29,244 nucleotides of DNA from Alphaproteobacteria bacterium (GCA_030639165.1 DAOWDF010000114.1:1-29244); one strand, 5' to 3'. Shown: positions 5,334 through 24,246, counted from the first letter of the stretch. Notes: generated by a model from the sequence alone, not told the origin. Numbers and translations are program-made.

Positions 5334-5361
5334 ACAATACTCCGCCAGCGCCAGATTTCAA
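5334..5361 (-). promoter_or_regulatory. Possible sigma70 promoter for nrdB
   Basis: Minus strand TTGAAA-N16-TATTGT, 33 nt upstream of the ATG. Weak -10 match. Confidence 0.3.
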
Positions 5362-6533
5362 GCCTTTTCCAATATATTTTTATTATAAATATAGGTCACA
5401 ACTTTCATAAGATTACCCTTATCATCTAAACCATCTATATCCGCCATAGATATCAAGCGACTATCACTAAGCCATGGTATAAATTCTACAAAAACTTTAG
5501 GGACAGGCACAATTTTACCAAACGCCGCCAAGTTTATTGATCCGTCATCAGAAGTAACTATCGCAAGCTTCACATGCTCTGGGCGTACTAAAACGCCTCC
5601 GTTTTGCAAATAACCAAGCAAATCATTAGCCGATAATTGCACATCCCTAGCCTCAACATCCTGCACTTCCTCATGCGATGGTGCAGAGAAATATTCTGCC
5701 ATCCAACGCGAGAAATCATCAGAATGCAACATTCCAACCAAACCATCGCGCACCACATCACGCGCACAGCCATCAATAGTAAAAGCTGCGCTAGAACCAT
5801 CTAGGCCCTGGCCTGAATAGCGATCATCCAGCCTTGAGATCTCACATTGCTCAAGGTAATGGCCATATGCCACCATCATGTCAGATAATTTAGGCCCCAA
5901 AAACCCAACCGAAAATGTCATCGCACTTTGCGTTGTTACGCCTTCATGCGCAAAATGTGGCGGTATATACAAAACATCTCCAATTGACATTTCGACCTCA
6001 ATGCCGTCAAAGCTGTCCTTTAAAATTATTAGCTCCTGACTATCTACATATTCTGCACTATCAACGTCCAAGGCGGTGCGCGCTATCTTCCACTGGCGCT
6101 TACCTATGCCTTGCACCAAAAACACGTGATAGCTATCAGTATGCGGGCCAACAGAGCCGCCTTTTTCGGAATAGCTCACCATTATATCATCCATAAGCCA
6201 GCGCGGTGAAAAGTTAAAATACTGCAATAAATTTGCCGTATCTGTGTGATATTGTTCAACATTTTGCACGAGTAAACTCCACCCCTCATCCCCTAGAGTA
6301 GAAAACTTTTCCTCATCAAACGGGCCATGCTCGCACCCCCACTCACCCCCATCTGGCACAGTAGTAACAATGCGCGATCGAATTTCTTCTTCCAATGACA
6401 AGCCAGCCAAGCTATCACCATCAATCAAACCGTCAATTACATCCGCAGGAATAGCACCACGCACAACAAATGGCCTCTTACCCCAATAATTCTTATAAAA
6501 TTCATCTGTACTTGGAAATTTATCTAATATCAT
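5358..6533 (-). CDS. roxA: JmjC/cupin-4 2-oxoglutarate Fe(II) oxygenase, RoxA/YcfD-like (ribosomal protein uL16 hydroxylase family)
   Basis: F...YW.KRP N-terminus, WSLLVQNVE, DDIMVSYS, GSVGPHTDSYHVFLVQG.GKRQW (HxD), GDVLYIPPHFAHEG (distal His). Confidence 0.8.
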   Translation of the reverse strand: MILDKFPSTDEFYKNYWGKRPFVVRGAIPADVIDGLIDGDSLAGLSLEEEIRSRIVTTVPDGGEWGCEHGPFDEEKFSTLGDEGWSLLVQNVEQYHTDTANLLQYFNFSPRWLMDDIMVSYSEKGGSVGPHTDSYHVFLVQGIGKRQWKIARTALDVDSAEYVDSQELIILKDSFDGIEVEMSIGDVLYIPPHFAHEGVTTQSAMTFSVGFLGPKLSDMMVAYGHYLEQCEISRLDDRYSGQGLDGSSAAFTIDGCARDVVRDGLVGMLHSDDFSRWMAEYFSAPSHEEVQDVEARDVQLSANDLLGYLQNGGVLVRPEHVKLAIVTSDDGSINLAAFGKIVPVPKVFVEFIPWLSDSRLISMADIDGLDDKGNLMKVVTYIYNKNILEKA

Positions 6534-7276
6534 TATTTTATTCTCAAAAATGGTTTAACCAACAATCGCAAGAACCTAACATCTTTTCTGCCCTCTACGC
6601 CAATCTTCATTGCATCAAACCTTCTCGTCGCGCTCTTTGTCTTAAAAACACGATCCCAAAAGCTAAAAATTGTGCCATAATTAGAGTCTGTATCTTTACG
6701 CACAGCGTGATGATGCACCCAGTGTATATTTGGCGTTACAATGATTTTAGATAGTATATTATCAACTAATTCAGGAATTTTTATGTTTGAATGATGAAAC
6801 AGCGCAAAGCTCATCACCAGTGTTTCAAATATCACGATAGATGAAAACGGAACAGCAAAAACCATAATAACCACAGCACGTACTAAGCTGGAAAAAAACA
6901 CCTCACCAAAATGAAACCGCACCGCAGAAGTAGTATCTAAATGCTCATCAAGGTGGTGAACTTCATGAAACCGCCATAGAAACGAAAGCTCATGCATTGC
7001 GCGATGCCACCAATAAATAAACAAATCCAGTATAATAATATCAAGCAATATAAGGCTTGAACGCTCCCACAATAAATGCTGGCTAGCGAAATAGCTTATA
7101 GGCAGAATAATCAGGAGCGATAGACCAATATTTAATGGCCAAAATGATAGGTTTTTTGCAATGCGCCGCCATGTCTGATTATTCGCAGATATCGCAGGGC
7201 GCAAATGCTCCCACGCAAAAAATAGGATAAATACCCCTGCAATTATCCAGCCCTTATATTCAATAATATTATCCAT
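6533..7276 (-). CDS. Sterol desaturase / fatty acid hydroxylase family membrane di-iron enzyme
   Basis: His boxes HRAMH, HEVHH, HHSN, HWVHH, plus DSNYGTIFSFWDRVF and several TM helices. Confidence 0.88.
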   Translation of the reverse strand: MDNIIEYKGWIIAGVFILFFAWEHLRPAISANNQTWRRIAKNLSFWPLNIGLSLLIILPISYFASQHLLWERSSLILLDIIILDLFIYWWHRAMHELSFLWRFHEVHHLDEHLDTTSAVRFHFGEVFFSSLVRAVVIMVFAVPFSSIVIFETLVMSFALFHHSNIKIPELVDNILSKIIVTPNIHWVHHHAVRKDTDSNYGTIFSFWDRVFKTKSATRRFDAMKIGVEGRKDVRFLRLLVKPFLRIK

Positions 7277-8710
7277 TTAAAACGGGAGTCTCTGAAGAAG
7301 TTTTACAACACGTCGCGTTTTATCACTAAACAAGCTTGGAGTATACCACGCACCTGCCGCGCGTTTACTAGCTTCCCCCATAGTCGGATATGGCACAATC
7401 ATAGAAGTTACAGCGCTAATTTTCAAGCCCGAAGAAATGGCCAAAGCCCACATGCCGATTAGCTCTCCGCCGCCTGCCCCGACGATCGACGCGCCTAGTA
7501 TCAATCCCTTTTTGTTAGTTATAATGCGAACCTGACCTTTAGTTATGCGCTCGGCAATAGCGCGGTCATTCTCATCAAAGCCCCACTCGGCCACCTTGAT
7601 ATTATCATCACCATATTTTGCGCGTGCATCCACTTCCGTTAAACCAACTTGTGCAAGCTCTGGGTCAGTATATGTTACCCATGGCAGCGCCTTATAATCC
7701 ACCTTAGCAGGCATTTTGAAACATATTTGACGAATAATAATTCCTGCATGATAACCCGCAACATGCGTAAATTGTGGAGCTTTAGATACATCACCAATAG
7801 CAAAAATATTCTTTGCACTTGTCCGCAGACGCTCATCAACATTAATACCGCCTCGATCGAAATCAATTCCTGCTTTTTCAAAACCAATCCCGCCAGTATT
7901 AGCCTTGCGCCCCGCCGCAACTAAAATATGCGAGCCTGCAACTTCAATAACCTGCCCATCTTTTTCTATCTCCAAAGCTACCATATTATCGCTATGCTTA
8001 ACTTCTTTTATAGATACATGCTCATGAAAATTAATACCTTCATTTTCTAAAGCCGCCTTAACAATAGCTACATTTTGCTGATCATCGCGTGGCAATATAG
8101 AGGCCATATCAAAAACGCTGACCTTGCACCCCAAACGCCTATGAGCTTGCGCCATTTCAATTCCAATAGGGCCACCGCCAATAATAAGTAAATGTTCAGG
8201 CTTTTCGCGCAGCTCAAATATATTTTCATTAGTGAAAGATTTGCTCTGGTCTAAACCTGTTATAGGCGGTACTGCCGCGCTAGAACCTGTTGCAATCACA
8301 AAGTAACGTGCCTTGATAATATTATCGCCAGCCTTAACAGTATCCGCAGCAATAAACTCTCCGCGCGCGCGGATAACATTAATGCCAAAACCCTCAAATC
8401 TTTCTTGCGAGTCATTAGGCTCAATAGTTTTTATCGTATCAAAGACATGATCCTTTACGGCGGCAAAATCAATATCAGGCTCATGCGCTTTTACGCCTTT
8501 AATATCGCCTTTACGCATAATCTGCGCCCGCTTCCCTGCAGCCAGCAAAGCTTTAGAAGGGACACAGCCAGTATTCAGACAATCACCACCCATTTCTGCG
8601 GCTTCAATTAATACAGTACTAAGACCTAGCTGCGCTGCACCAGCGGCGACTGATAGCCCGCCCGAGCCTGCGCCAATAATACAAAGATCTACATTTATGT
8701 TATTAGTCAT
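7277..8710 (-). CDS. Flavoprotein disulfide reductase, LpdA/MerA/RclA-like (no C-terminal Cys pair)
   Basis: FAD motif GAGSGG, redox-active GGDCLNTGCVPSK, NAD(P) motif GGGPIG.E, YTDPELAQVG. YPT in place of HPT. Confidence 0.85.
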   Translation of the reverse strand: MTNNINVDLCIIGAGSGGLSVAAGAAQLGLSTVLIEAAEMGGDCLNTGCVPSKALLAAGKRAQIMRKGDIKGVKAHEPDIDFAAVKDHVFDTIKTIEPNDSQERFEGFGINVIRARGEFIAADTVKAGDNIIKARYFVIATGSSAAVPPITGLDQSKSFTNENIFELREKPEHLLIIGGGPIGIEMAQAHRRLGCKVSVFDMASILPRDDQQNVAIVKAALENEGINFHEHVSIKEVKHSDNMVALEIEKDGQVIEVAGSHILVAAGRKANTGGIGFEKAGIDFDRGGINVDERLRTSAKNIFAIGDVSKAPQFTHVAGYHAGIIIRQICFKMPAKVDYKALPWVTYTDPELAQVGLTEVDARAKYGDDNIKVAEWGFDENDRAIAERITKGQVRIITNKKGLILGASIVGAGGGELIGMWALAISSGLKISAVTSMIVPYPTMGEASKRAAGAWYTPSLFSDKTRRVVKLLQRLPF

Positions 8711-8712
8711 GT

Positions 8713-10125
8713 CTATTTCTCAACTTCACTTGGCTTATTTAAAGACCAGTCATAATTTAAATATTGTAACTTCACTTGCTTATTGAGGGAGATATAAGAT
8801 TGCAGCCATCCTTTAACATCGCCGCCATTAAAATCTGCCTCAAACCACTTAAAAATCTTACTGATCTTAATGTTATTCCCATTTAAACTCAGCCCCTTCC
8901 CCTCATTTCCAAGCGTAAGTAAAACCTGTTCTTCTAGCTGCTTATCAAGTATTTCACTTCGGTAAGCCTCCCCGCGCAGATCAGGGCAAGATATAGATGC
9001 ACAGTTAATTGCAAAATGTATCCGCGCATCGCCCATAGGACGCAATATTTCATGCTCTATATAATTTAGAGTATAGCTCTTACCGCCAATTTTCCAGCTA
9101 TGCTTTTTCCATGGGCTTGTAAACATGGAGCCAAGATTCTTGATAGTCTCACGCTCATTTTCACGAACAATAAGATCAATGGTAAGAAAATTATAAGCAT
9201 TAATCCAAAATGCCATATCACCGCCATTTTCTGCCTGCAAAATCTTCAAAGCCTCGCCATGACGCTTATCCTCTGCCCAGCCATCATAATCAACAGCCAT
9301 ATATTGCTTATTCACAAAAGCCGAACTATTCGGCGATACATAGCTTTGCAATAAACCATCATAAAGAGTTGAAAATCGATCATAATTATCACTAGCCATT
9401 ACATTCGGTGACATAACCATAAGCGCGGCAACCACCATCGCCACAGATTTTCTTCTGCCCTTAATCTTCTTATAAATCATAGGTATAAGCGCAAATAACC
9501 CCAGCAATGTAAATGCCATTAATGTTTGCGGCGATGCTAAATCACCCAAAGAATCAATAGTGCCAAGCTCTCTACCAACATTCGCATAAACAAAAGTCCC
9601 AGGGATAATTCCAATCATAGTTGTCAGCACATAAGGGATAAGTCGCACATTAAATAACGCTGGCACAATATTAACTAGGAAGAACGGGAATAGCGGCACA
9701 AGGCGCATAAACAACATATAGCTAATTGCGTTCTCTTCCATATTCGCCGCAACTTTATCATATAAAGAACCGCATTTATCACGCAACGTCTCGCCCAAGG
9801 CGCTGCGTGCTATCAGGAATAATATGGTTGCACCTAAAGTTGCTCCCGTAACTATAGCCACTGTACCAAGCAAGCTTCCGAACAAGAAACCACCAAGCAA
9901 TGTCAGCACCGTTGCAACCGGAAGCGACAAAGCCACAGCGCCTGCATATATCGCAACAAACGCCAAAACGCTCAATACAGGATGCGCCTCTACTAGGCTC
10001 AAAAGCTCTCCCCGCTGCTGCTTTATTGCATCAAGACTTACCAGCTCCATGAGGCCAGAGGCCCAAGCACTCGCGATCATTCCTATAATAATAACCAAAG
10101 GCAGCCAGCATTTTATAACTTTCAT
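8713..10125 (-). CDS. TVP38/TMEM64 (VTT, DedA superfamily) membrane domain fused to DUF547 domain
   Basis: VTT motifs LTLLGGFLFG and RLVPLFPFFLVN, then DUF547 motifs AFWINAYN, LNYIEHEILR, RIHFAINCASISCPDL, YDWSLN. Start moved from 10197 to ATG 10125 (GGAAAGAG RBS; the longer start overlaps the promoter). Confidence 0.82.
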   Translation of the reverse strand: MKVIKCWLPLVIIIGMIASAWASGLMELVSLDAIKQQRGELLSLVEAHPVLSVLAFVAIYAGAVALSLPVATVLTLLGGFLFGSLLGTVAIVTGATLGATILFLIARSALGETLRDKCGSLYDKVAANMEENAISYMLFMRLVPLFPFFLVNIVPALFNVRLIPYVLTTMIGIIPGTFVYANVGRELGTIDSLGDLASPQTLMAFTLLGLFALIPMIYKKIKGRRKSVAMVVAALMVMSPNVMASDNYDRFSTLYDGLLQSYVSPNSSAFVNKQYMAVDYDGWAEDKRHGEALKILQAENGGDMAFWINAYNFLTIDLIVRENERETIKNLGSMFTSPWKKHSWKIGGKSYTLNYIEHEILRPMGDARIHFAINCASISCPDLRGEAYRSEILDKQLEEQVLLTLGNEGKGLSLNGNNIKISKIFKWFEADFNGGDVKGWLQSYISLNKQVKLQYLNYDWSLNKPSEVEK

Positions 10126-10162
10126 TTTTCTACTCTTTCCAAAATAATCTGTTATGATCACA

Positions 10163-10189
10163 TTCGCTGCTCTACAAACATAGTTACAA
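10163..10189 (-). promoter_or_regulatory. ECF-type promoter 1 (left arm)
   Basis: Minus strand TTGTAAC (10189-10183), N16, CGAA (10166-10163), 37 nt before ATG 10125. Confidence 0.7.
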
Positions 10190-10196
10190 AAAACCA

Positions 10197-10224
10197 TTGT
10201 AACCTTGCCTTATAATTTTGCGAA
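10197..10224 (+). promoter_or_regulatory. ECF-type promoter 2 (right arm)
   Basis: TTGTAACC (10197-10204), N16, CGAA (10221-10224), 36 nt before ATG 10261. Confidence 0.75.
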
Positions 10225-10260
10225 ATACCCTTTATGGAGATATTTATATAAGGAATAATC

Positions 10261-11367
10261 ATGGATCTATCATTAGCATTTATGGCCGCTGGATTGTTAT
10301 TTTTACTATCATTTGCCAATGGCTCCAATGATGTATCAAAAGGTATAGCAACATTAGCTGGATCTGGACTAAGCTCGGTTCGCGGAGCAATTGCATGGGG
10401 AACAATCTGGACAGTTGCCGGCGCATTTTCTGGCCTTTATTGGGGCGGCGCTATAATAAAGAATATCAGCGGCTCAATATATGTCGAAGCCCATGAATTT
10501 TACCTGCCAACAGCTTTAGCCATATCCATTGCACCTATTTTATGGGTAGGGCTAGCTACTTGGCGCAAATGGCCGGTATCCACCACTCACGCAGTTGTTG
10601 GCGGTCTTGTAGGCGCGGGACTAATCGCATACGGAATAACAGGCATTGACTGGCCAACGATCTGGAAGAAAATTGCTTTGCCATTATTGGCTAGCCCATT
10701 TATGGCGATTGGCTTGGCTTGGGTATTATTACCAACATTAGAAAAAACCGCACGCAACATTAATGGCTTGCGTATATGCTTAACCCCTGTGCCAAAATTT
10801 GCATTTGTTAACGCAAGAAACGGCGCGCAAGAGCCATTAGACGATTGCCTTATTTGCAAATGCGATAGCACGCAAGCAGGCTTAACTCACGGAGTATCCC
10901 TTTCAGTAAACCACTTACATTGGCTGACCAGCGGGCTTCTTTCATTTTCACGCGGACTTAATGATACGCCGAAATTAATTGCCATTGTTATGCCCTTTTT
11001 AATGCTGGAACAACTTGTTGCACCCGTTTGGCTATTCACTTTGGGCGCGCTGTCTATGGGCGCAGGTAGCTGGATTGCAGGCCGTAATATAACCGAAGTC
11101 TTAGGGTTTAAAGTTACAAAAATGAACCATGAACAAGGATTTTCTGCTAATTTAGTCTCAGCATTTTTGGTTATAGGAGCTAGCCGTTTTGGCTTGCCCG
11201 TATCGACCACCCACGTATCCTCATCATCAATTATGGGCATTGGGTTATCAAATGGAAAAGGATTGAATATGGCGACAGTTAAATCTATGCTGTTCGCTTG
11301 GGTTGTAACCGCGCCAATCGCAGCCATATTGGCAGCTATAATTTATTTAATCGCAAGTATACTTTAA
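10261..11367 (+). CDS. PiT-family inorganic phosphate/anion transporter
   Basis: Duplicated signature ANGSNDV / RGLNDT, PVSTTHAV and PVSTTHV, multiple TM helices. AAGGA RBS. Confidence 0.85.
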   Translation: MDLSLAFMAAGLLFLLSFANGSNDVSKGIATLAGSGLSSVRGAIAWGTIWTVAGAFSGLYWGGAIIKNISGSIYVEAHEFYLPTALAISIAPILWVGLATWRKWPVSTTHAVVGGLVGAGLIAYGITGIDWPTIWKKIALPLLASPFMAIGLAWVLLPTLEKTARNINGLRICLTPVPKFAFVNARNGAQEPLDDCLICKCDSTQAGLTHGVSLSVNHLHWLTSGLLSFSRGLNDTPKLIAIVMPFLMLEQLVAPVWLFTLGALSMGAGSWIAGRNITEVLGFKVTKMNHEQGFSANLVSAFLVIGASRFGLPVSTTHVSSSSIMGIGLSNGKGLNMATVKSMLFAWVVTAPIAAILAAIIYLIASIL

Positions 11368-11382
11368 AAAGAGAAAACAAAA

Positions 11383-12432
11383 ATGACACAACAAATAATT
11401 GATGACGTTAAAGATTATTACGGACAAATACTTGATACTAAAGATGATTTAAAGACAAGCGCCTGCTGCCCTCTCGAAGCTCCGCCAATGCATGTACGCG
11501 ATTTACTAAAGAATGTGCATGATACCGTGCAGGAAAAATTCTATGGCTGTGGCTCGCCGCTGCCATTAGCTGCGAAGGGCTGCACCGTGCTTGATTTAGG
11601 ATGCGGCACTGGTCGTGATGCCTTTTTACTAAGTCAGATTGTCGGAGAAAATGGCAATGTGATCGGCGTTGATATGACCGATGAGCAACTATCTGTGGCC
11701 AATCAATATCTTGGTTGGCACATGGATAAATTCGGGTTTAACAGACCAAATGTTAAATTCGTTAAGGGCTATATCGAGGATTTAAAAACCGCAGGCATAG
11801 AAGATGAAAGCGTTGATATTGTTATATCTAATTGCGTTATTAACCTCTCCGCCGATAAAGAAAAAACATTTAGCGAGATTTATAGAGTTTTGAAACCTGG
11901 CGGCGAGCTATATTTCTCCGATGTATTCGCAGGCAGGCGCATACCACAAGCCCTACAAATAGATAAAACATTACTAGGCGAGTGCTTGGGCGGAGCGATG
12001 TACACTCATGATTTTCGTCGTATGATGGCAAAAATAGGCATGGCCGATGTGCGCGTCACAGCCAATCGCCAAATGACTTTAGATGATGCAGAAGTCGAAG
12101 CAAAAGCAGGGATGATAGATTTCTATTCCACCACTGTGCGCGCCTTTAAAGTTGATCTAGAAGATATCTGCGAGAATTATGGGCACGTAGCGTATTACAA
12201 AGGAACAATCCCAGAATGCAAGCATAGCTTTACGCTTGACGATCATCACGAGTTCAAAACTGGCATGCCAGTCCCCGTATGCGGCAATACTGCAAACATA
12301 CTAAGCCAGACTAGATTTGCCGAGCATTTCCGCATTGAAGGTGATTTCTCAACTCACTATGGAGAGTTCGATTGTGCATCCCCTAGCCCTACTTCAAACG
12401 ATGAAACTAATTCTGGTGGAGCATGTTGTTAG
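11383..12432 (+). CDS. arsM: Arsenite S-adenosylmethionine methyltransferase, long AS3MT-type
   Basis: DYYG..L....DLKTSACC, KFYGCGSPLP, LDLGCGTGRD, GVDMTDEQL, SNCVINLS, GECLGGA. All four canonical As-binding Cys positions appear present. Ends GGACC. Confidence 0.88.
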   Translation: MTQQIIDDVKDYYGQILDTKDDLKTSACCPLEAPPMHVRDLLKNVHDTVQEKFYGCGSPLPLAAKGCTVLDLGCGTGRDAFLLSQIVGENGNVIGVDMTDEQLSVANQYLGWHMDKFGFNRPNVKFVKGYIEDLKTAGIEDESVDIVISNCVINLSADKEKTFSEIYRVLKPGGELYFSDVFAGRRIPQALQIDKTLLGECLGGAMYTHDFRRMMAKIGMADVRVTANRQMTLDDAEVEAKAGMIDFYSTTVRAFKVDLEDICENYGHVAYYKGTIPECKHSFTLDDHHEFKTGMPVPVCGNTANILSQTRFAEHFRIEGDFSTHYGEFDCASPSPTSNDETNSGGACC

Positions 12433-13010
12433 ATAATGTCAGCATAATAATCCCGACAGCAAGCAATGAAACCAGACTAGGTATATTACTTAATGATTTA
12501 GAGTGCGCTGATGCTGAAATAATAACCTCATCCGGAATTACTAGAGCCAAAAGCATGAACTCTGCCTCAAGCAAAGCTACAAGAGAATATCTATGGTTTT
12601 TGCATGCAGATAGTAGAGTATCATTAGATAATCTAAAGGCTCTTGAAATGTCGTTACAGGAAAATTCAGAATCCCTACGTTATTTTAACCTCGCATTTGA
12701 TGGTGGTTTTGCCACAAATATAAATGCATGGGGAGCAAATATCCGCTCACGAGTTTTTAGCATGCCCTATGGTGATCAAGGTATATGCATCTCTAAAACA
12801 CTATTTGATAAAATCGGCGGCTATCGCGAAGATGTGCCTTATGGAGAGGATCTTATATTTGTATTAACGGCAAAAAACTTTGGGATAAAGCTCCAAAACA
12901 TCCCCTCAAAACTACTCACCAGTTCACGTAAATATAAGCAGCAAGGCTGGCTCAAACTAACAATGATAAGACAATGGCAATTACTTAAACTTTTAAGGAT
13001 TAAGATATGA
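12423..13010 (+). CDS. GT2-fold transferase, TIGR04283-like (arsenosugar-cluster glycosyltransferase)
   Basis: SIIIP start, RA..MN, WFLHADS (DxD-like), PYGDQGICI, GGY.EDVPYGED, TSSRKY. Overlaps arsM by 10 nt and the next gene by 4 nt. Confidence 0.8.
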   Translation: MLLDNVSIIIPTASNETRLGILLNDLECADAEIITSSGITRAKSMNSASSKATREYLWFLHADSRVSLDNLKALEMSLQENSESLRYFNLAFDGGFATNINAWGANIRSRVFSMPYGDQGICISKTLFDKIGGYREDVPYGEDLIFVLTAKNFGIKLQNIPSKLLTSSRKYKQQGWLKLTMIRQWQLLKLLRIKI

Positions 13011-13672
13011 GCGCAGCTATTGCTATATTTGTTAAAACCCCTGACCTATCGCCTGTAAAAACACGGCTAGCCGCGACAATAGGCAAAGATAAAGCACTAG
13101 AGTTTTACCAACTTAGCGTCAAGGCTGTTGAGCGCACTATAATAAATACAGAGGCAAAACCCTTTTGGGCTGTAGGAGAAATCGATGGAATAGATAATCC
13201 ATTATGGTCTGAATTTGATAATATATATACTGGTGATGGCTGTTTAGGAGAGCGCCAAAATCATATTTATAGATCCCTACTTAAAACTCATGATAAGGCA
13301 ATTCTTATCGGTGCCGATGCCCCTCAAATTTCCCCTGATATAATAAATAAAGCCATAGCCGCGCTTGATAACAATGATTTTGTCATTGGGGGAGCAAGCG
13401 ATGGCGGTTACTACCTATTTGGCGGAAGAGAGCCAATTGACCCTAATATATGGACTAACACGCCGTGGAGTGATCCCGCCACCCGCGAATGCCTTGCGGC
13501 CGCCCTACCCTCAAAACCTGCGCACCTACCAATATTAACCGATGTTGATACAATAGATAACCTGACATCTATATTGGCTGAAATGCCTGCAAATACTAGC
13601 CCTGAGCAGCAATCCGTAATAAAGTGGGTAACTTCCTTGGAAAATAAAGCGAATGACTGTGCAGGAGGCTAA
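13007..13672 (+). CDS. DUF2064 / TIGR04282-like transferase (CofC/MobA-like fold)
   Basis: IFVKTP...VKTRLA..IG, LGER, LIGADAP, DGGYYL.G, PWS, DVDT..D. ATGA coupling to the upstream gene. Confidence 0.82.
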   Translation: MSAAIAIFVKTPDLSPVKTRLAATIGKDKALEFYQLSVKAVERTIINTEAKPFWAVGEIDGIDNPLWSEFDNIYTGDGCLGERQNHIYRSLLKTHDKAILIGADAPQISPDIINKAIAALDNNDFVIGGASDGGYYLFGGREPIDPNIWTNTPWSDPATRECLAAALPSKPAHLPILTDVDTIDNLTSILAEMPANTSPEQQSVIKWVTSLENKANDCAGG

Positions 13673-13675
13673 TTT

Positions 13676-14164
13676 ATGGGTAAAAATTTAAACCGCAGAA
13701 ATTTTATAATAGGATTATTAACTACTGGATTTATAATAGCGACAAGCGCTGGAAAGGTTTTAGCGGCCATGACAGAAAAACTGGTTTTAAGCGATGAAGA
13801 ATGGCAAAAACGCCTAAGCGATGAACAATTTCAGGTTCTACGCAAGGAAGCTACAGAAAGGCCTTTCACCAGCCCCCTCAACAAGGAGAAACGCGACGGA
13901 GTGTTTCATTGCTCAGGCTGTGACTTGGAGCTGTTTACCTCGGATCAAAAATTTGATAGCGGCACAGGGTGGCCTAGCTTTTTCGATGGCTTCAAAGACC
14001 ATATAGAAACCAGAGCAGATTATAAAATGTTCTACCCGCGCACCGAATACCATTGCGCGCGCTGTGGCGGCCATCAAGGGCATATATTTAAGGATGGCCC
14101 AAAACCGACAGGCCTGCGCTACTGCAATAATGGTGTAGCCTTAAATTTCAAGAAAAAGGGGTAA
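13676..14164 (+). CDS. msrB: Peptide-methionine (R)-S-oxide reductase with Tat signal peptide
   Basis: GTERPF-like ATERPFTS, Zn ligands CSGC and CARC, KFDSGTGWPSF, GHQGHIF.DGP, RYCNNG. N-terminal NRRNFIIG twin-arginine signal. Confidence 0.93.
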   Translation: MGKNLNRRNFIIGLLTTGFIIATSAGKVLAAMTEKLVLSDEEWQKRLSDEQFQVLRKEATERPFTSPLNKEKRDGVFHCSGCDLELFTSDQKFDSGTGWPSFFDGFKDHIETRADYKMFYPRTEYHCARCGGHQGHIFKDGPKPTGLRYCNNGVALNFKKKG

Positions 14165-14171
14165 GGTTGCA

Positions 14172-14750
14172 ATGCGTTTATTACTTATTTTAATTATGGG
14201 GGTGTTCATGTCTATAGAAGCCAAAGCTAATACTCAAGAAACAGCCATTGTCGCAGGCGGCTGCTTCTGGTGCGTAGAATCCGACTTTGATAAGCTGGAC
14301 GGAGTAACATCTACCGTTTCAGGATATATCGGCGGCAGCGCAGAAGACGCAGATTATAAAAAAGTATCACATGGCGGCACAAATCATTACGAAGCGGTTA
14401 AAATAACATTCGACCCCGCGCGCATTAGCTATAAAGAGCTAATGGATTATTTTTGGAAACATATTGATCCGCTTGATACAAATGGACAATTTTGTGATAA
14501 GGGATCGCAATATCGCGCGGGCATATTCTATATAAATGATGAGCAAGAACAAATTGCTATAAAGTCAAAAGAAACCGCCGCAAAGCTACTAGGCAAAAAA
14601 ATTGTAACTGAAATTCTACCAGCAGATACCTTCTATGACGCAGAAGATTACCACCAAGATTATCATGAAACCCACCCCTTCCGCTATAAATTATATCGCG
14701 GAGGCTGTGGTCGCGACAAACGGGTAAATGCACTATGGGGCAATAAATAA
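14172..14750 (+). CDS. msrA: Peptide-methionine (S)-S-oxide reductase with Sec signal peptide
   Basis: AGGCFWCVE, GYIGG, HYEAV, GSQYRAGIF, AEDYHQDY, resolving Cys in GGCGRD. Signal peptide ending EAKA-N. Confidence 0.93.
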   Translation: MRLLLILIMGVFMSIEAKANTQETAIVAGGCFWCVESDFDKLDGVTSTVSGYIGGSAEDADYKKVSHGGTNHYEAVKITFDPARISYKELMDYFWKHIDPLDTNGQFCDKGSQYRAGIFYINDEQEQIAIKSKETAAKLLGKKIVTEILPADTFYDAEDYHQDYHETHPFRYKLYRGGCGRDKRVNALWGNK

Positions 14751-15166
14751 TGAATATATTATTTCTCTGCACCGGTAACTCTGCGCGCTCTATTTTAGGC
14801 GAGGTCATATGCAATGAATTATTAGCAGGACAAGGCATCGCCTATAGTGCAGGCAGCAAGCCAGTGGGAGAGGTAAATCCTGCTGCTATTATTACGCTAA
14901 AAAATCATGGCAACTCAACACACGGCTTATATAGCAAAAACATTGATGAGTTCACCAAGAGCAGTGCGCCAAAGATTGATCTACTGATCAGCGTTTGTGA
15001 TAATGCAGCGAGTGACTGCCCTGTTTGGCTAGGAAATGGAGAGCCAAAACGCCTCCACTGGCCAATGGCTGACCCCGCCAGCGTAACAGGCCTAACCGAA
15101 AAAGCAGCAGCCTTTGAAGATACTTACCAAATATTAAAATCAAAGCTTAGCGAGCTTTTAAGCTGA
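14750..15166 (+). CDS. arsC: Arsenate reductase, thioredoxin-coupled LMW-PTP fold
   Basis: P-loop CTGNSARS, YSAGSKP, resolving pair VCDNAASDC (CX6C), HWPMADP. 1-nt overlap with msrA. Confidence 0.85.
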   Translation: MNILFLCTGNSARSILGEVICNELLAGQGIAYSAGSKPVGEVNPAAIITLKNHGNSTHGLYSKNIDEFTKSSAPKIDLLISVCDNAASDCPVWLGNGEPKRLHWPMADPASVTGLTEKAAAFEDTYQILKSKLSELLS

Positions 15167-16078
15167 ACATGATCCGCCACCAAGAACGCAGAATTTAGCG
15201 CAATGCGGATGGTTTAAATACACAGCTCTCGATGCCTCTTTTAGAGTAGACCCCATATTGAATTGCTGATCATAGGCGAGCAAGGTACAAGCCTGAACTG
15301 ATGGTTTATCATCGCCCTTGCGCTTTACCACCATGCGCGAGCTACTACACATCATATCATCAGGATTAACGCCCAGTATATCCCAACACGCCGTAGTTAT
15401 TTCAGGAACATCTATATTTCCTTCCATCTCGGGGAATAACATTAACTGCTTTTGATCATGGGCGTTGATTTTAATATTATGCTCTTTAAAAAACGCAGCA
15501 AAGCCATCTCGCAACTCTGCCTCATCTTCTCCCCAGCGAGTGCGCCCCGCTATATCTATATTAAAACCATTGTCAGAAAGCCACTTTATACCCAGCATCA
15601 TCGGCTTCCATGATTTATCCCCGCGCTCTTCCTCGTGCAATTCTTGCTTAAAATTATCGATAGAAACACGTAATGTCATTTGATCGCCATACTCGCCCTT
15701 AAGGCGCAATAACTCCCCCTCGCACTTCATCATAGGGCGCATAGCATTGGTAAGAACCAGCAGTTTAAAACCGCGCTTGAGGCTCTCCTCCATTATTCTA
15801 ATAATATCAGGATTCATAAATGGCTCACCGCCAGTTATTCCAATCTCTTCAACCGCAATATTATCCTGCTTGATCTCATCCAAATATTCCAAAGCTTCGG
15901 CAAATGTCAAATAAACAAGAGCATCATTCTTCGGCGTAGACTCTATATAGCAATTAGCGCACGCTAAATTGCACAGCGTCCCAGTATTAAACCACAACGT
16001 CTTAAGCGCGGTTAAATCCACCCATGCACGCTTCTCACCATTTGATGTGATACGGGAATTAATAAATTTTTCTTTCAT
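15158..16078 (-). CDS. Radical SAM protein related to ArsS, with Cys-rich C-terminus
   Basis: CX3CX2C in GTLCNLACANCYIESTP, ITGGEPF, VLTNA, RVSID. Extra C-terminal Cys (TACW, MMCS, QAC, HPHCAKFC...SCS). Start moved from 16129 to ATG 16078. Confidence 0.85.
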   Translation of the reverse strand: MKEKFINSRITSNGEKRAWVDLTALKTLWFNTGTLCNLACANCYIESTPKNDALVYLTFAEALEYLDEIKQDNIAVEEIGITGGEPFMNPDIIRIMEESLKRGFKLLVLTNAMRPMMKCEGELLRLKGEYGDQMTLRVSIDNFKQELHEEERGDKSWKPMMLGIKWLSDNGFNIDIAGRTRWGEDEAELRDGFAAFFKEHNIKINAHDQKQLMLFPEMEGNIDVPEITTACWDILGVNPDDMMCSSSRMVVKRKGDDKPSVQACTLLAYDQQFNMGSTLKEASRAVYLNHPHCAKFCVLGGGSCSA

Positions 16079-16114
16079 GAAATAAACTCTATTATTTAAC
16101 CATCTACACCAGAG

Positions 16115-16142
16115 TTCGTATATAACCACCTAATAGTTACAA
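16115..16142 (-). promoter_or_regulatory. ECF-type promoter 3 (radical SAM gene)
   Basis: Minus strand TTGTAACT (16142-16135), N16, CGAA (16118-16115), 36 nt before ATG 16078. Confidence 0.72.
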
Positions 16143-16157
16143 GAAAATGCCATAGCA

Positions 16158-18968
16158 TTATTTACCCACTGAATCGACCCTAGAGGAATCATGAGCCAAC
16201 TCCAGTAGCCACTTATTGAGTATTAAAGAAAAATCCTCTTTTACAACAGGCTTAGATATAAAGTCATTCATGCCAACAGAATAGCACTTACCTTTTTCTG
16301 CACTCAATACATTAGCAGTAAGGGCAATTATTGGGATATTTTCATCACACTTACGTATCTCAAGAGTAGCCTCAAACCCATCCATTACAGGCATATGACA
16401 ATCCATAAATATAATATCATAATCTTCTTCACCTGCCATCTCAACGGCAATTTCTCCATTTACCGCATTATCAACTACACAACCATACCCCTCAAGCATC
16501 TCTGTAATTACAAATACATTAACAGCCACATCTTCAACCAATAAAACACGAGCTTCATAAAATGTAGAATCTAATAATATTTGATTTTTAATATTTTTAT
16601 TGGTTAAGTTTTCCAACTCCTTATCTGTTGGAATAAGTAACGGTATAGAAAACCAAAATTCCGATCCTTCACCTTCAACACTACTAAGCTCAACAACCCC
16701 GCCCATCATTTCAACTAAAGCACTACAAATTGATAGCCCTAAACCCGTTCCACCAGCATTTCGAACAGAGGAAGGGTTCACTTGTGAAAATGCCTTAAAT
16801 AATTGTTCATATTTACCTTCAGGAATTCCAGAGCCTGTATCCCCAACGATAAATTTAATATATTCATCGCCATTGTCATCACTAAACACTAACACCTCAA
16901 GAGAAATAGCCCCCTCATCAGTAAACTTCATCGCATTATTTAACAGATTAATAACCACCTGCCTTATACGACCTTTATCACCTACAATATACTCTGGTAA
17001 ATCATCGTATTTCAGTTTTAAATCCAACCCTTTTTCTTGCATTGGAGTTAAGAAAAGATGATGTACCTCATCAACACAATGATAAATATCAAAAGGCTCA
17101 TTTATAATCTTTATCTTCCCTGCCTCCAAACTACTAAAATCTAGTATTTCATTTAAAATAACTAGCAACGCCCTGCCTGAATTTTGAATTGTTCGTACAT
17201 AATTTTGCTGCTTCTCATTTAGATCAGTATCCGCAATTAAACTAGCCGTTCCTATAACACCATTCATAGGTGTACGAATTTCATGACTCATATTAGCTAG
17301 AAAATCACTTTTAGCTTTTGCAGAATATTCAGCATTCACCTTTGCTTTTTCCAACTCATATGCATGTTTTTGTAGTTTTTCAGTCTGCTCACCTACAAGC
17401 TGATTTACCGCAGATGTTCTACCAGTAATAAACAGTAAAAATACACATAGTAACGTACTAAATAATGATCCTAATATTAAGATAACCCATGGATTCCAGC
17501 CTTGCTCAGAAATCATATAATCTTCTGTAAGACTAAGATGTATACCCCATAAACGCCCCCCAACCTCAAATTTACGCTCTAACTCCATAAATCCTGAATA
17601 TAGTTCATCTTCATAAAGTGAAAAATCCAAGCCACGGTCACTCTCATCATGCAAAAGAATTTTTATGCCTGAATATTCTAAATCCCTTAAAATAACATCA
17701 ATCAAATCATCCATAAAAAATAAAGCCGATACATAGCCTTTTAAATTCTGGCCTTGAGCGCCTCCATTTGCATATACAGGGGCAAATGCAAATATACCAT
17801 CTTCAGTTTCTCCCCCATTCATAAAGCTTATTTTTGAAGTAATCGTTATATCTCCAGTATTACGCGCCCTAATAAAAGCCTCTCGTTGTTTTCTATCAAA
17901 GGTTATATCTGCTCCAAAATATTGCTTATTATTTTCATATGGCTCAATGTAATTTACTATAACATGGCCTTCTTCGTTTATATCCTCATCATACATCAAC
18001 TGATCATATGGATTTTTGATACTAAACTCTGCAAACCCTTCAGCTTGTACAGACCTAACAAAAGATTCTAATTCATCACTTAATACGTAGGAGTTAAATG
18101 ATAATAACTTTACTCCTTTATTATACTCTAGAAATAAATCAACAAATTTTTTAAATTCTACTCTCTCTACATAGCTAGAGCTTTCATAAAATCGTTGAAT
18201 GTAATGCAATAAGTCAAAAGCATGTGTGAAATGCTCTTGTAATTCTAGGGACATATTATCCGCACGTTGCTCAAACCTAGTGCTAATAACATTATTCTCA
18301 AAATTCCGTGAACTTATAAAGACTATGACGACACAACAGAACAATATTAAAACAGGTAATATGACAGAAACTCGACGTTTCATCTCTATTATATTTTTCT
18401 TCGCAAGACCCACTACTATCAACGGCATAAAAACCATCACACCCACAGTATCACCAAGCCACCACTTCCCCCAACTTAGAAAAAAATCTTCCGGATTAAT
18501 AACCCCTGCAAGCAACAATGCTATCATGGCAAATGAAGCTGAAATAATACAACTAACCACCCCCCCCATGAATAGAAAGTTAAAGATATCCTTTTCTTGC
18601 TCTAATGGTGTTGGAAATTTAATATATTTCTTAATCAAAAAGCTACCACAAATAGCCTGCAAAGTTGCACCACTAGACACAATAAACAAAAGGCATAAAG
18701 AAGTATTAGATAGAAGGTCATTACCAGCATCAATTGCAATATAATAATTAGTTAGCGCAGCCCCAAAAAAAACACCTAGCGAAATCTTATATCCAAACAA
18801 CAATATTGCTGCCAGCGCAACGCCAGAGGCAGGCCACACAATACTTCCAATCTCTGGGGGTACAGTCAGCAAAAGCCCAAGCTGGCCAAAGGCAAAGTAA
18901 ATCAGAGATAATGCTATAATTTGCAATATCCATTTAGCCAATAAAAATATTTTCACTAAACCACCCAC
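16158..18968 (-). CDS. Hybrid sensor histidine kinase (MASE1-CHASE-HisKA-HATPase-REC)
   Basis: MASE1 (VWPASG, WWLGD..G), CHASE (VER.EF), H-box [17 protein letters not shown] boxes [24 protein letters not shown], receiver [13 protein letters not shown] start. Confidence 0.92.
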
Positions 18969-19089
18969 ACAAGTACTATATACATAACGATATCAATTTA
19001 ATAAGAGCCAATAGCATTTGTAAATCATTATTATTAAATATTGTACACGCATAATATATACGAAATAACAATTATAATCATCAGAAAAA

Positions 19090-22000: not shown

Positions 22001-22518
22001 CCCAATGTAATTAAAACAGTGCCCGCAATAGTACCCAGCAAAATAGCCAAAAACGTGCCTGTATTAAGCAAAGCATTCCCGCCTATCAGCTCATCATCTT
22101 CCAGATGTTGCGGTAAAATAGAATATTTACTTGGCCCAAAAAACGCAGATTGCGTTCCAAGCGCAAATAACACCATAAATGACAAGACTATAGACCCGCT
22201 TAGGATTGCTGCTGCCCCAAGCAAAGCAATAGCTATCTCTGCGAGCTTAATTATCCTTATTACGCGGTGCTTCGGAAATTTATCGGCAAGCTGCCCGCCC
22301 AGCGCAGAAAATAATACAAACGGTAGAATAAATAACCCAGCGGCCAAAGTAACCAACAGCTCCTGATTTTCTACATAGCTTGTACCTACCCCATAAAGCA
22401 ATAATACGACCAACGCATTTTTAAACAAATTATCATGAAACGCCCCAAGAAACTGGGTGACAAATAACGGTAAAAACCGCTTATCATTTAATAATGCAAA
22501 TTGATTACTTTTACTCAT
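19090..22518 (-). CDS. aas: Acyl-[ACP]--phospholipid O-acyltransferase, trifunctional MFS(LplT)-PlsC-acyl-ACP synthetase
   Basis: MFS N-terminus (TQFLGAFHDNLFK), acyltransferase NHVSLLD and FPEGR, adenylation FTSGSEGMPKG and EGYGATE, GSGKTDY. AAAGGG RBS. Confidence 0.93.
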   Translation of the reverse strand: MSKSNQFALLNDKRFLPLFVTQFLGAFHDNLFKNALVVLLLYGVGTSYVENQELLVTLAAGLFILPFVLFSALGGQLADKFPKHRVIRIIKLAEIAIALLGAAAILSGSIVLSFMVLFALGTQSAFFGPSKYSILPQHLEDDELIGGNALLNTGTFLAILLGTIAGTVLITLGAGKLLVCGLLVLCALSGYLASRFIPEALPKAADLKLNFNPVTETVDILKQTFSQKRNVVRAIIGVAWFYFLGGMFMAQMPNYVGGTLGANEYVLAFFLAIFSIGIAVGGLLNNRLLRGRVEAIYVPLAALGITIFSIDLYFANGSVAGFSEDLLSINVFLGEVSNWRIVIDISMIALCGGLFVVPLNTMIQHYTAEDMRARVLAGSAIMNSLFIVASSAISAVLILKGWEIRELFLAFAVMNAFVAIYICKLLPDYLFKSLLQGLFKLLYNVEVVGLDNFEKAGKRAVIVGNHVSLLDPPLLAAFLPGRPMFAVNSHVANWVWVRPFLKLVDTFPLDPTNPFSLKELIRKVEGGRQVVIFPEGRLTETGALMKVYDGPGMIADKADAVILPIRLDGVQHTFLARLKGKVPMRRFPKITITILEPRKFKIDEEVKGRARRAAAGRQLYDLMEEMMFVTSNRKQTLYEALLDAHNINGKDAIIAEDIERKSMKFKKLVRGSVVIGRELSAVTEKGENVGLMLPNSIGAITSFFALQAYGRVPAMLNFSAGVKSLLSACETASVKTVLTSKRFVKLSRMEDVIEELEKHTKIIYLEDIIKGIGSFDKAVALLASAAKIHKKQKINPEDPALILFTSGSEGMPKGVVLSHNNIMSNIVQLSSRVDFNNQDIVFNCLPMFHSFGLTGGTLLPILSGVKTFLYPSPLHYRIVPELVYSSNATIMFGTDTFLNGYARKANTYDFYRMRYIFAGAEKVKEETRRLYMDRFGVRVLEGYGATETSPALALNSPMHMKDGSVGRLLPGIEYRLEEVAGVDKGGRLFVKGPNVMLGYYRDDNPSVLEPPEDGWYDTGDIVDIDDQGYVVILGRAKRFAKIAGEMVSLTSVEAMVQAIYPEEQHAVVSIPDARKGEQLIFVTTKKNANKKELSAYAAENGITELSVPKTIMETDHIPVLGSGKTDYKAVQLFVEERLIKAA

Positions 22519-22538
22519 AATTCTACCCTTTCAAATTC

Positions 22539-24150: not shown

Positions 24151-24246
24151 TATTAATAACTCCACTTAAAGGTAAGTATATATTATTTACAAGATAGCCC
24201 AAACAATATGGCTCCAACCTAGTATATTTACCTAACAAACATTAAA

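Follow-up and report, generated by a model that had tools for sequence, protein, structure and literature searches.

Among the closest described relatives of the locus reported here are the ArsM/ArsS arsenosugar starter pathway and the NCBIfam 'arsenosugar biosynthesis' set (TIGR04167, NF038099, TIGR04282 and TIGR04283), with which it shares its parts list: an ArsM-type methyltransferase, a Cys-rich radical SAM protein, a DUF2064/CofC-like protein and a GT2-like protein. ArsS (TIGR04167) adenosylates DMAs(III) (PMC13598754), and canonical ArsS clusters of proteobacteria also combine VTT and reductase genes with TIGR04283, TIGR04282, ArsS and ArsM (e.g. L046). In the arsinothricin pathway, a radical SAM enzyme makes a C-As bond from SAM and ArsM methylation is encoded in the same cluster (bioRxiv 10.1101/2024.02.01.577332). 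The classical ars operon consists of ArsR, ArsB or Acr3, and ArsC. On the regulatory side, sigmaF/NrsF regulons are known from Caulobacter crescentus (metal stress; bufferin operons) and from Azospira suillum (hypochlorite; MsrP-MrpX).

The window, i.e. the whole stretch of DNA that was analysed, comprises 29,244 nt of an Alphaproteobacteria bacterium (GCA_030639165.1 DAOWDF010000114.1:1-29244) from a cold-seep metagenome. The genome is a fragmented MAG of 332 contigs, 85% complete and with 3.5% contamination. Pfam and NCBIfam profile matches define a cluster of 12 tightly packed genes in three transcription units at 5358-16142 (Table 1). All 12 lie where the first-pass annotation had placed them, as two divergent operons and one convergent gene, and belong to the families it had named (including PF09335 and PF04784 in the VTT-DUF547 protein), except that its 'desaturase' is a fatty-acid hydroxylase-family protein. 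Successive gaps are 2, 0 and -1 nt in the minus-strand unit and 15, -10, -4, 3, 7 and -1 nt in the plus-strand unit. For both the VTT-DUF547 gene and the radical SAM gene, the longest ORF (starting at 10197 and 16129, respectively) runs across the gene's own promoter, so that the ATG codons at 10125 and 16078 are the likely starts.

Table 1. Genes and promoter motifs of the cluster in window coordinates; functions are predicted from homology.
Feature	Position	Strand	Remarks
JmjC_2/RoxA(YcfD)-like Fe(II)/2-oxoglutarate oxygenase	5358-6533	minus	PF08007, 96 bits; last gene of minus-strand unit
Fatty-acid hydroxylase family membrane protein (His-box di-iron, OlsE-like)	6533-7276	minus	PF04116, 97 bits
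NAD(P)H flavoprotein disulfide reductase, CLNTGC active site	7277-8710	minus	Pyr_redox_2 and Pyr_redox_dim
VTT (DedA-type) membrane domain fused to DUF547, CASISC motif	8713-10125	minus	PF09335, PF04784; first gene of minus-strand unit
sigmaF(ECF16)-type motif TGTAAC-N16-CGAA	10163-10188	minus	Minus-strand unit; 37 nt before ATG 10125
sigmaF(ECF16)-type motif TGTAACC-N16-CGAA	10198-10224	plus	Plus-strand unit; 36 nt before ATG 10261
PiT/PHO4-family oxyanion transporter, putative phosphate/arsenate importer	10261-11367	plus	PF01384, 240 bits
ArsM-type As(III) S-adenosylmethionine methyltransferase	11383-12432	plus	Structure matches; four Cys
Divergent TIGR04283-like GT2-type transferase	12423-13010	plus	TIGR04283, 142.6 (cut-off 182)
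Divergent TIGR04282-like/DUF2064 protein (CofC/MobA-like nucleotidyltransferase type)	13007-13672	plus	PF09837; TIGR04282, 121.5 (cut-off 134)
Periplasmic MsrB, Tat signal (NRRNFI)	13676-14164	plus	TIGR00357, 152.5 (cut-off 113)
Periplasmic MsrA, Sec signal	14172-14750	plus	TIGR00401, 182 (cut-off 108)
LMW-phosphatase-fold, thioredoxin-coupled ArsC-type arsenate reductase (putative)	14750-15166	plus	PF01451
Radical SAM protein	15158-16078	minus	Convergent; 9-nt overlap with end of LMW phosphatase gene
sigmaF(ECF16)-type motif TGTAAC-N17-CGAA	16115-16141	minus	Radical SAM gene; 36 nt before ATG 16078

Compared with the canonical arsenosugar set, the components here are divergent paralogues that fall below the family cut-offs (score/cut-off: ArsS 55/300, TIGR04283 143/182, TIGR04282 122/134, NF038099 129/400). 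Against their canonical counterparts, the radical SAM protein and the two transferases show 23-31% identity, the VTT domain and the reductase 34-38%, and ArsM 47%. The arsinothricin pathway differs further: its enzyme ArsL is noncanonical and transfers a 3-amino-3-carboxypropyl group, its NCBIfam ArsM model gives 164 for our ArsM against a cut-off of 500, and neither a nucleoside phosphorylase nor sugar transferases are expected in it. A thioredoxin-type ArsC is common to this cluster and the classical ars operon, but no ArsR-type gene was present among the scanned window ORFs of at least 100 aa, the genome, at 85% completeness, yielded neither ACR3 nor ArsB, exporters of arsenite or organoarsenicals were not seen, and control appears to lie with an ECF sigma factor. 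No characterisation of this gene combination was found in the literature searched, although the combination is a variant of a gene set already named by NCBI.

The three units share the motif TGTAAC-N16/17-CGAA, with three copies in the window against 0.12 expected (none of 100 shuffles reached three), all at a uniform 36-37 nt upstream of an ATG. The copy preceding the plus-strand unit is an exact match to GTAACC-N16-CGAA, the experimentally mapped consensus of Caulobacter sigmaF (PMC3511200). No sigma factor gene lies within the window; an ECF sigma gene and an NrsF gene abut on contig C266 (L001 905-1459 and 1462-2103). The NrsF (DUF1109) protein reaches 84.5 bits (cut-off 26.8), and its C130 and C180 correspond to Caulobacter C131 and C181, the two sensor cysteines being common to the known systems and this genome. 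The other motif sites of the genome are located upstream of dsbD and of two bufferin operons, one encoding DUF2282-MbnB-DUF2063-DoxX and the other a Cys-rich peptide and then a protein in which MbnB and DUF2063 are fused. The same gene types, bufferin operons and DsbD, belong to the Caulobacter sigmaF regulon, whose promoter consensus is also the same. No copy of the motif was found upstream of the genome's own sigma gene. Upstream of cassette genes, GTAAC-N16/17-CGAA gave 23 matches in 16 related loci against 0.29 expected, and sigma/NrsF homologues are encoded inside the cassette in three other genomes (L014, L017, L028). The motif, the sigma/NrsF pair and this conservation support both the common promoter and the ECF control proposed by the first-pass annotation, and the cluster appears to belong to an ECF16 (sigmaF/NrsF) stress regulon. 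As in Azospira suillum, its output would include methionine-sulfoxide repair, MsrA and MsrB taking the place of MsrP. It differs from the published sigmaF regulons in that an ArsM/radical SAM cassette lies behind the motif here and in the 16 related loci, whereas no arsenic-metabolism or radical SAM genes were found for such regulons in the literature searched.

The ArsM-type protein aligns with Chlamydomonas ArsM (5evj) at 369 bits over residues 8-341 and with CmArsM at 306 bits over its full length, and has Cys at all four As-binding positions (C44, C72, C174 and C224 of CmArsM). It remains below the PRK11873 cut-off (195 bits vs 263) as well as that of NF038099, a model that the ArsM adjoining a true ArsS in L046 likewise fails, at 91.5 bits. 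In the ArsC-type protein, the CX5R P-loop (CTGNSARS) and the Cys82/Cys89 pair (VCDNAASDCP) align with pI258 and B. subtilis ArsC; its TIGR02691 score is 63 bits against a cut-off of 174, and the gene occurs in 8 related loci. The four cysteines of ArsM and the Cys triad of ArsC support the arsenic chemistry predicted for both. Homologues of the PiT protein with 70-81% identity are found in the cassettes of L003, L014 and L028, and L017 has a PstS-type ABC importer at the corresponding position; phosphate-type importers of two unrelated kinds recur in the cassette, together with phosphate porins.

The radical SAM protein (PF04055, 69 bits) carries the CX3CX2C motif as CNLACANC at residues 36-43, invariant across 26 sequences, in addition to the invariant C231, C244, C264, C293 and C297 and the near-invariant C304. 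The protein is not ArsS: it scores 55.4 bits on TIGR04167 (ArsS, with a DUF3641-type C-terminal half) against a cut-off of 300, matching model positions 5-150 only, and its identity to ArsS is 23%. Nothing elsewhere in the genome exceeded the TIGR04167 cut-off. Using hhalign, columns 24-289 of the radical SAM protein aligned with columns 22-287 of ArsS (probability 97.3%, E 1.9e-11), with modest confidence in the C-terminal alignment and an ArsS profile built from 2 sequences. Both proteins have the C-terminal tail H-C-x2-3-C-x2-G-x-G-x1-2-C. The AF2 model (pLDDT 84.6) resembles twitch/SPASM-type enzymes, and no solved structure close to it was found. Judged from these alignments, the protein is a member of a widespread unnamed family and a distant full-length homologue of ArsS. 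Adenosylation followed by sugar transfer, as suggested initially, is then a reasonable model given the profile alignment and the linkage to transferases, even though the enzyme is not ArsS.

TIGR04283 and TIGR04282 are the only NCBIfam matches of the two transferases, both of which miss the curated cut-offs; canonical examples reach 259-278 and 203 bits, respectively. The best NCBIfam match of the reductase is PRK06370-type (427 vs a cut-off of 620), and in the PDB it is equally far from MerA and LipDH (238 bits each). Homologues with 61-74% identity to it are encoded in 15 related loci, and those of canonical ArsS-type clusters reach 37-38%. We also considered mercuric reductase MerA and rejected it: the TIGR02053 score is 351 bits, below 454, and both the N-terminal metal-binding (NmerA) domain and the C-terminal Cys pair are missing. 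The VTT-DUF547 protein has hydrophobic segments in residues 1-245 followed by DUF547, and no solved relative was found; 6 loci have this fusion, whereas 10 have a VTT protein alone. An MTAP-type phosphorylase is absent from the cluster and encoded on contig C262. This enzyme lies in the cassette of 18 of 26 related loci, a regular presence that distinguishes the variant described here from the canonical ArsM/ArsS set.

The radical SAM family adjoins divergent TIGR04282/04283-like transferases in about 26 other genomes. Among 40 radical SAM loci, many of which end early at contig ends, we counted TIGR04283-like genes in 26, TIGR04282-like genes in 25, MTAP-type genes (TIGR01694, 275 vs a cut-off of 274.85) in 18, ArsM in 16, a VTT protein in 16, the reductase in 15 and ArsC in 8. 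The core thus recurs in other genomes; the hydroxylase, JmjC and Msr genes were found in only 1, 0 and 2 other loci, respectively. The hydroxylase (NCBIfam OlsE, 86 vs a cut-off of 475) has a homologue with 67% identity 3' of the reductase in L025 only. The JmjC protein, with a weak ROXA-like wH match and the HxD...H residues present, has no homologue adjoining the cassette in 43 other loci. Lipid tailoring by the hydroxylase and a part for JmjC therefore find no support in this comparison. The Sec and Tat signals of MsrA and MsrB agree with the periplasmic methionine-sulfoxide repair first proposed, but its coupling to the cassette is weakened by the presence of Msr genes in only 2 other loci. 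Their distribution marks the hydroxylase, JmjC and Msr genes as additions particular to this lineage rather than steps of the pathway.

Our preferred reading, held with moderate confidence, is that the cluster is part of an ECF16 stress regulon and that its conserved core is a paralogous ArsM/ArsS 'arsenosugar-type' gene set. It most likely converts arsenic to a sugar-linked organoarsenical, by a mechanism whose functional steps are all deduced from homology and from the linkage of the genes. The periplasmic C130 and C180 of NrsF would be attacked by an oxidant or a thiol-reactive compound, for instance As(III), Cd, Cu, chromate or hypochlorite, and the sigma factor thus freed would direct transcription from the three TGTAAC-N16/17-CGAA promoters, the two bufferin operons and dsbD. 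PiT would admit arsenate, the ArsC-type phosphatase would reduce it to As(III) and ArsM would methylate it. The radical SAM enzyme could then move the 5'-deoxyadenosyl group of SAM onto the trivalent arsenical, in the way that ArsS acts on DMAs(III), and the MTA-phosphorylase-type enzyme could remove adenine, giving 5-arsinoyl-5-deoxyribose-1-phosphate. This sugar phosphate would be activated by the DUF2064/TIGR04282-like nucleotidyltransferase-type protein and passed by the TIGR04283-like GT2 to an acceptor, yielding an arsenoriboside. The flavin reductase and VTT-DUF547 protein probably hold an intermediate in its reduced state (e.g. by converting a pentavalent organoarsenical to the trivalent form), deal with the product at the membrane, or do both. 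MsrA/MsrB, the hydroxylase and the JmjC oxygenase would serve stress repair independently of the pathway, having come under the same promoters in this lineage. Of the full route initially envisaged, the chemistry of ArsM and ArsC is retained, while a local nucleoside phosphorylase and scores above the arsenosugar cut-offs are lacking. Deliberate import of arsenate is odd for pure detoxification, which counts against this main reading, as do the lack of a visible exporter, the missing motif upstream of the sigma gene, the scores below the arsenosugar cut-offs and the low identity (23%) of the radical SAM protein to ArsS.

Arsenic is the probable substrate rather than a proven one because some genomes that carry the radical SAM family yielded no ArsM. 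Radical SAM proteins with 67-75% identity sit in rSAM-MTAP-TIGR04283-like-TIGR04282-like operons of five genomes, and no ArsM homologue was found in any of these five; among 5 genomes whose radical SAM copy is unlinked, ArsM was found in just one (the completeness of the genomes behind these counts is not established). The cluster may house two unrelated chemistries, a possibility we regard as real but rather unlikely: ArsC and ArsM would do no more than detoxify arsenic by reduction and methylation, and the radical SAM-MTAP-transferase-reductase-VTT module would make or recycle a non-arsenic 5'-deoxyadenosyl or 5-deoxyribosyl compound or modify the envelope, for example through a sugar carried on polyprenyl phosphate, with the DedA-type VTT protein handling it. 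Canonical TIGR04282/04283, reductase and VTT modules also occur in complete genomes without either radical SAM family, so that the link between the transferase/reductase core and ArsS-type chemistry is not universal. Of 401 Pseudomonadota genomes sampled, 184 have a TIGR04283 match above the cut-off, which seems far too many for an arsenic speciality. In addition, MTAP enzymes also clear 5'-deoxyadenosine, a radical SAM by-product (PMC8102628). Against a separate module, ArsM is co-operonic with the transferases, their frames overlapping or abutting, both in the window and in 15 loci elsewhere; the cassette repeatedly includes ArsC, phosphate-type importers and phosphate porins, and the radical SAM protein is homologous to ArsS along its whole length.

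The same logic could apply to another element, the methyltransferase and the radical SAM enzyme acting on Sb(III), selenide/selenite, tellurite or a sulfur species to give a riboside of selenium, sulfur or antimony. Other metalloid oxyanions are also accepted by ArsM-type enzymes and PiT carriers, the ArsM-less radical SAM operons adjoin YeeE/YedE-type Sulf_transp and DUF302 genes, and an S/Se analogue had been raised at first pass. We consider this improbable: ArsM retains its four As(III)-binding cysteines and ArsC its triad, the ArsM-containing cassettes have phosphate-type and not sulfate- or selenate-type importers, and the sediments of the cold-seep habitat are arsenic-enriched (PMC10060404).

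A further, highly speculative reading is that the conserved module, rather than detoxifying arsenic, builds a redox-active riboside, an antioxidant that is associated with the envelope and sacrificed under hypochlorite or metal stress. The redox couple of this compound could be trivalent arsine and arsine oxide or, in the operons that lack ArsM, a chalcogen analogue, and the flavin reductase and DUF547 would regenerate its reduced form. If true, this would explain the dedicated importers, the absent exporter and the use of a stress sigma factor instead of ArsR.

A chance or merely syntenic neighbourhood in one MAG, possibly a mis-assembly, is compatible with the fragmentation and contamination of the genome and with the JmjC, hydroxylase and Msr genes not being conserved partners, but is extremely unlikely given that the promoter motif is common to the units and conserved across loci, that the core set is found again, with its gene order kept, in Alpha-, Zeta- and Betaproteobacteria and Bdellovibrionales MAGs, and that one public run, which may be the sample of origin, contains 89% of the sampled words of the stretch.

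ORF listing and Pfam/NCBIfam scans bore out the 12 genes, and their families, that the first-pass annotation had claimed for the cluster. Starts at 10125 and 16078 were placed for two of these genes, because their longest ORFs cover their own promoters. The source MAG of contig C258 amounts to 1.73 Mb in 332 contigs and is 85% complete. Loci related to the window are labelled Micavibrio or Alphaproteobacteria, and the window stretch is contained in cold-seep metagenome runs.

Features of the window, of other contigs of the same genome and of two comparison loci. The motif is TGTAAC-N16/17-CGAA; contigs C23 (L051 2022-4542) and C320 (L052 259-2223) hold the two bufferin-type operons.
Feature	Location	Strand	Remarks
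Unit of VTT-DUF547, flavin disulfide reductase, PF04116 fatty-acid hydroxylase and JmjC_2 oxygenase	window	minus	gaps 2, 0, -1 nt
Unit of PiT, ArsM-like methyltransferase, TIGR04283-like, TIGR04282-like/DUF2064, MsrB, MsrA and LMW phosphatase	window	plus	gaps 15, -10, -4, 3, 7, -1 nt
PiT	window 10261-11367		Cys-rich loop CLTPVPK...DDCLICKCDS
ArsM-like methyltransferase	window 11383-12432		C-terminus ...GGACC, terminal Cys pair
Radical SAM gene	window		convergent with phosphatase gene, 9 nt overlap
MASE1-CHASE hybrid histidine kinase, LplT-Aas fusion (MFS, acyltransferase, acyl-ACP synthetase), two tandem alpha/beta hydrolases	window 16158-24165		adjoin radical SAM gene; no motif copy upstream
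Truncated integrase	window 24367-24980		115-aa Arm-DNA-binding domain only; beside tRNA-Ser(GGA)
Bufferin-type RiPP operon, DUF2282 precursor-MbnB-DUF2063-DoxX		minus	TGTAAC-N17-CGAA upstream
Second bufferin-type operon, 106-aa Cys-rich secreted peptide, then MbnB/DUF2063 fusion		minus	TGTAAC-N17-CGAA upstream
DsbD-family protein, 711 aa (DsbD_N, DsbD_TM, thioredoxin-like)	C61 (L053 1479-3614)	plus	sigmaF-type motif 35 nt upstream
PiT-like carrier homologue	C214:1138-2100	minus	in-frame stop at relatives' Tyr (VQW*HAAAP)
PstS-type ABC importer, in PiT's place	L017 15798-16693 and neighbours		own sigmaF-type motif
ECF sigma of another type (TIGR02943)	L046 10202-10975		between TIGR04282 and ArsS

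The radical SAM enzyme belongs to a very large and highly conserved family, named in databases only as 'radical SAM protein', whose members in MAGs of Alpha-, Zeta- and Betaproteobacteria and of Bdellovibrionales are 55-80% identical. Its spread is patchy: of 18 congeners, 5 carry it, and it is absent from all 12 genomes taken from the order's other families. When 26 members were aligned, the CX3CX2C motif and cysteines C231, C244, C264, C293 and C297 proved invariant, and C304 near-invariant. ArsS adenosylates DMAs(III) to 5'-deoxy-5'-dimethylarsinoyladenosine (PMC13598754). That the window enzyme is simply unrelated to ArsS was rejected, since profile-profile comparison aligned its columns 24-289 with ArsS 22-287 (probability 97.3%), giving full-length homology; both families also end in a similar three-cysteine tail. 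That it is ArsS itself was rejected as well: it scored 55 on the ArsS model of NCBIfam, against a cut-off of 300 and over the N-terminal core only, and BLAST against the true ArsS of locus L046 aligned the first 155 residues only, at 23% identity. No other NCBIfam model reached its cut-off. The enzyme is thus an ArsS paralogue. Its AlphaFold model (pLDDT 84.6) retrieved generic twitch/SPASM-type radical SAM enzymes in a fold search (TM 0.4-0.58), with no solved close relative and no functional clue, and a PDB sequence search gave a marginal BlsE match only.

We compared 40 non-redundant loci carrying this radical SAM gene, in which partner counts are lower bounds owing to contig ends. TIGR04283-like and TIGR04282-like genes accompany it in at least 26 and 25 loci, respectively, an MTAP-type phosphorylase in at least 18, ArsM and VTT or VTT-DUF547 in at least 16 each, the reductase in at least 15, ArsC in at least 8 and PiT in at least 4. 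The first-pass annotation had staked its reading on the genes occurring together in other genomes, and for the core genes they do, the same partners recurring across the 40 loci. In class A loci, which resemble the window, the radical SAM gene converges on (ArsC)-TIGR04282-like-TIGR04283-like-(MTAP-type phosphorylase)-ArsM, with reductase and VTT(-DUF547) genes nearby and, often, an added PiT, PiT-like carrier, PstS-type ABC importer or phosphate-selective porin. Class B loci, from Rhizobiaceae/Hyphomicrobiales MAGs, show a co-directional radical SAM-MTAP-TIGR04283-like-TIGR04282-like operon without ArsM; in L019-L021, L024, L026, L029 and L030 these four genes adjoin YeeE-type Sulf_transp and DUF302 genes. 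Class C comprises remoter members (54-61% identity), set among housekeeping genes whose arrangement is conserved. Since 4 of 5 class C genomes hold a TIGR04282-like gene elsewhere, the neighbouring genes for O-succinylhomoserine sulfhydrylase, ApaG, GTP cyclohydrolase I and TrkH were read as inherited gene order and rejected as partners.

The MTAP-type phosphorylase reaches the cut-off of the MTAP model TIGR01694. Its gene is absent from the window, and a 66%-identical copy, without motif, lies on contig C262 of the same genome. Transferases found beside this radical SAM, in classes A and B alike, mostly score under the curated cut-offs, whereas those that neighbour a true ArsS, or occur with no radical SAM gene at all, exceed them by a wide margin; each radical SAM family thus pairs with its own transferase sub-branch. 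The canonical proteobacterial ArsS cluster L046 is built of the same parts, namely a VTT-reductase fusion, TIGR04283, TIGR04282, an ECF sigma of another type, ArsS and ArsM. The truncated integrase, about 8 kb from the cluster, looks like the remnant of an integrated element, in keeping with the patchy occurrence of the cassette among congeners (5 of 18).

The methyltransferase aligned over its full length with solved ArsM structures (369 bits to 5evj, 306 bits to CmArsM), and all four As(III)-binding positions are cysteines. Like thioredoxin-coupled ArsC, the LMW phosphatase possesses the CX5R loop and, downstream of it, the pair of cysteines. Although these defining residues are present, both proteins fall under the NCBIfam cut-offs and are therefore not named automatically. 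The terminal cysteine pair of the ArsM-like protein and the cysteine-rich loop of PiT are possible extra metalloid-binding sites. The carrier homologue on contig C214, 64% identical to the PiT-like carrier in the L005 and L022 cassettes, is either a pseudogene or an assembly error.

TGTAAC-N16/17-CGAA occurs three times in the window against 0.12 expected, a number matched by 0 of 100 shuffles, and each copy lies 36-37 nt upstream of the first ATG of a unit. Sigma-70-like sites in the cluster region were at chance level. The motif corresponds to the sigmaF-binding sequence mapped in Caulobacter crescentus, GTAACC-N16-CGAA (PMC3511200). No sigma factor gene, ECF included, is present in the window. 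On contig C266, an NrsF/DUF1109 gene starts 3 nt past the end of an ECF sigma gene; its product has cysteines at 130 and 180, and C131 and C181 are required in Caulobacter NrsF (PMC3511200). Counted over the whole genome, exact copies of the motif (7) do not exceed those of a reversed-pattern control (11). Nevertheless, of the four sites outside the window, three precede genes, namely two bufferin-type operons and one DsbD-family gene, and only one has no gene behind it; bufferin-type operons are the central members of the sigmaF regulon in Caulobacter (PMC3511200). Across the comparison loci, GTAAC-N16/17-CGAA immediately precedes cassette genes at 23 sites in 16 loci, a count that overstates independence as it includes close relatives, against 0.29 expected from background density and only 10 occurrences elsewhere in the 643 kb. 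The enrichment of the motif is therefore positional rather than global. Homologues of the sigma/NrsF pair lie within the cassettes of L014, L017 and L028. ECF16 control of the cluster is a well-supported prediction: the shared ECF-type promoter of the first-pass annotation finds backing in the three window copies, the pair on C266 and the recurrence in 16 loci.

The Msr pair was found beside the cassette in L025 and L027 only, the hydroxylase in L025 only, and the JmjC gene in none of the compared loci. We therefore treat these genes as probable lineage-specific members of the regulon. Arsenolipid tailoring, which the first pass had proposed for the hydroxylase under the name of a desaturase, was rejected for that enzyme and also for the JmjC enzyme, for want of conservation in other loci. 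The signal of MsrB is of the twin-arginine type and that of MsrA of the Sec type; the DsbD-family protein, whose gene follows a copy of the same motif, is a potential donor of electrons to both enzymes in the periplasm.

Arsenosugars rank with the most abundant organoarsenicals of the sea. To our knowledge, only the first two enzymes of the route, ArsM and ArsS, are known, and the literature searched held no characterisation of TIGR04282, TIGR04283 or DUF2064, of arsenosugar gene clusters, of this radical SAM family or of a link between ECF16 and arsenic; the canonical transferases bear the NCBI name 'arsenosugar biosynthesis glycosyltransferase'. Judged by sequence, the cluster is a cassette of the ArsS type, made up of paralogues and placed behind promoters of the sigmaF/NrsF type. 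As the most economical model, we propose a sigmaF-driven arsenosugar-type route, each biochemical step of which we infer from facts of sequence. NrsF would detect stress and sigmaF would then switch on the three units. Arsenate would be imported, reduced and methylated, and the ArsS-like enzyme would adenosylate the trivalent arsenical. MTAP-type phosphorolysis would free a sugar phosphate, to be activated by the nucleotidyltransferase-type protein, and the GT2 enzyme would transfer the sugar, the reductase and VTT-DUF547 acting as putative redox or membrane helpers. The interpretation made at first pass is partly supported: ECF control and the arsenic enzymes, by the defining residues of ArsM and ArsC, are kept, the radical SAM enzyme is a paralogue of ArsS and not ArsS itself, and lipid tailoring by the hydroxylase is lost.

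ArsM homologues were found in none of five class B genomes searched (L019, L020, L021, L026 and L030) and in only one of five class C or unlinked genomes, all of unknown completeness, and the substrate of the class B module may be a compound other than methylated arsenic. Of 401 Pseudomonadota genomes sampled, 184 have a TIGR04283 score above the cut-off, and canonical TIGR04282/04283-reductase-VTT modules occur in complete genomes without either radical SAM family. For these reasons, the transferase/reductase/VTT core may have a role wider than arsenic, and a trivalent arsenical is a candidate substrate of the new radical SAM family.

The cluster and its relatives define a second, widespread radical SAM family in the place of ArsS. 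They offer candidates for the late steps, with an MTA-phosphorylase-type enzyme that would release ribose-1-phosphate, a CofC-like nucleotidyltransferase that would activate it and a GT2 enzyme for transfer, together with a candidate reductase for pentavalent organoarsenicals. Through these candidate functions, the late steps and a second family of As-C bond-forming enzymes become directly testable. Organoarsenical synthesis would also be tied to the sigmaF/NrsF stress sensor, which has the copper-binding bufferins under its control as well. Such a tie points to NrsF as a possible arsenite sensor and to arsenic transformation as a possible part of a general envelope-stress response in arsenic-rich sediments.

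In one congener (L017), the cassette itself contains the sigma gene and nrsF, and the PstS-type importer lies next to them. The ECF sigma gene of L046 is part of a canonical ArsS/ArsM cluster from another proteobacterium, and ECF control of ArsS/ArsM-type clusters may be a wider theme.
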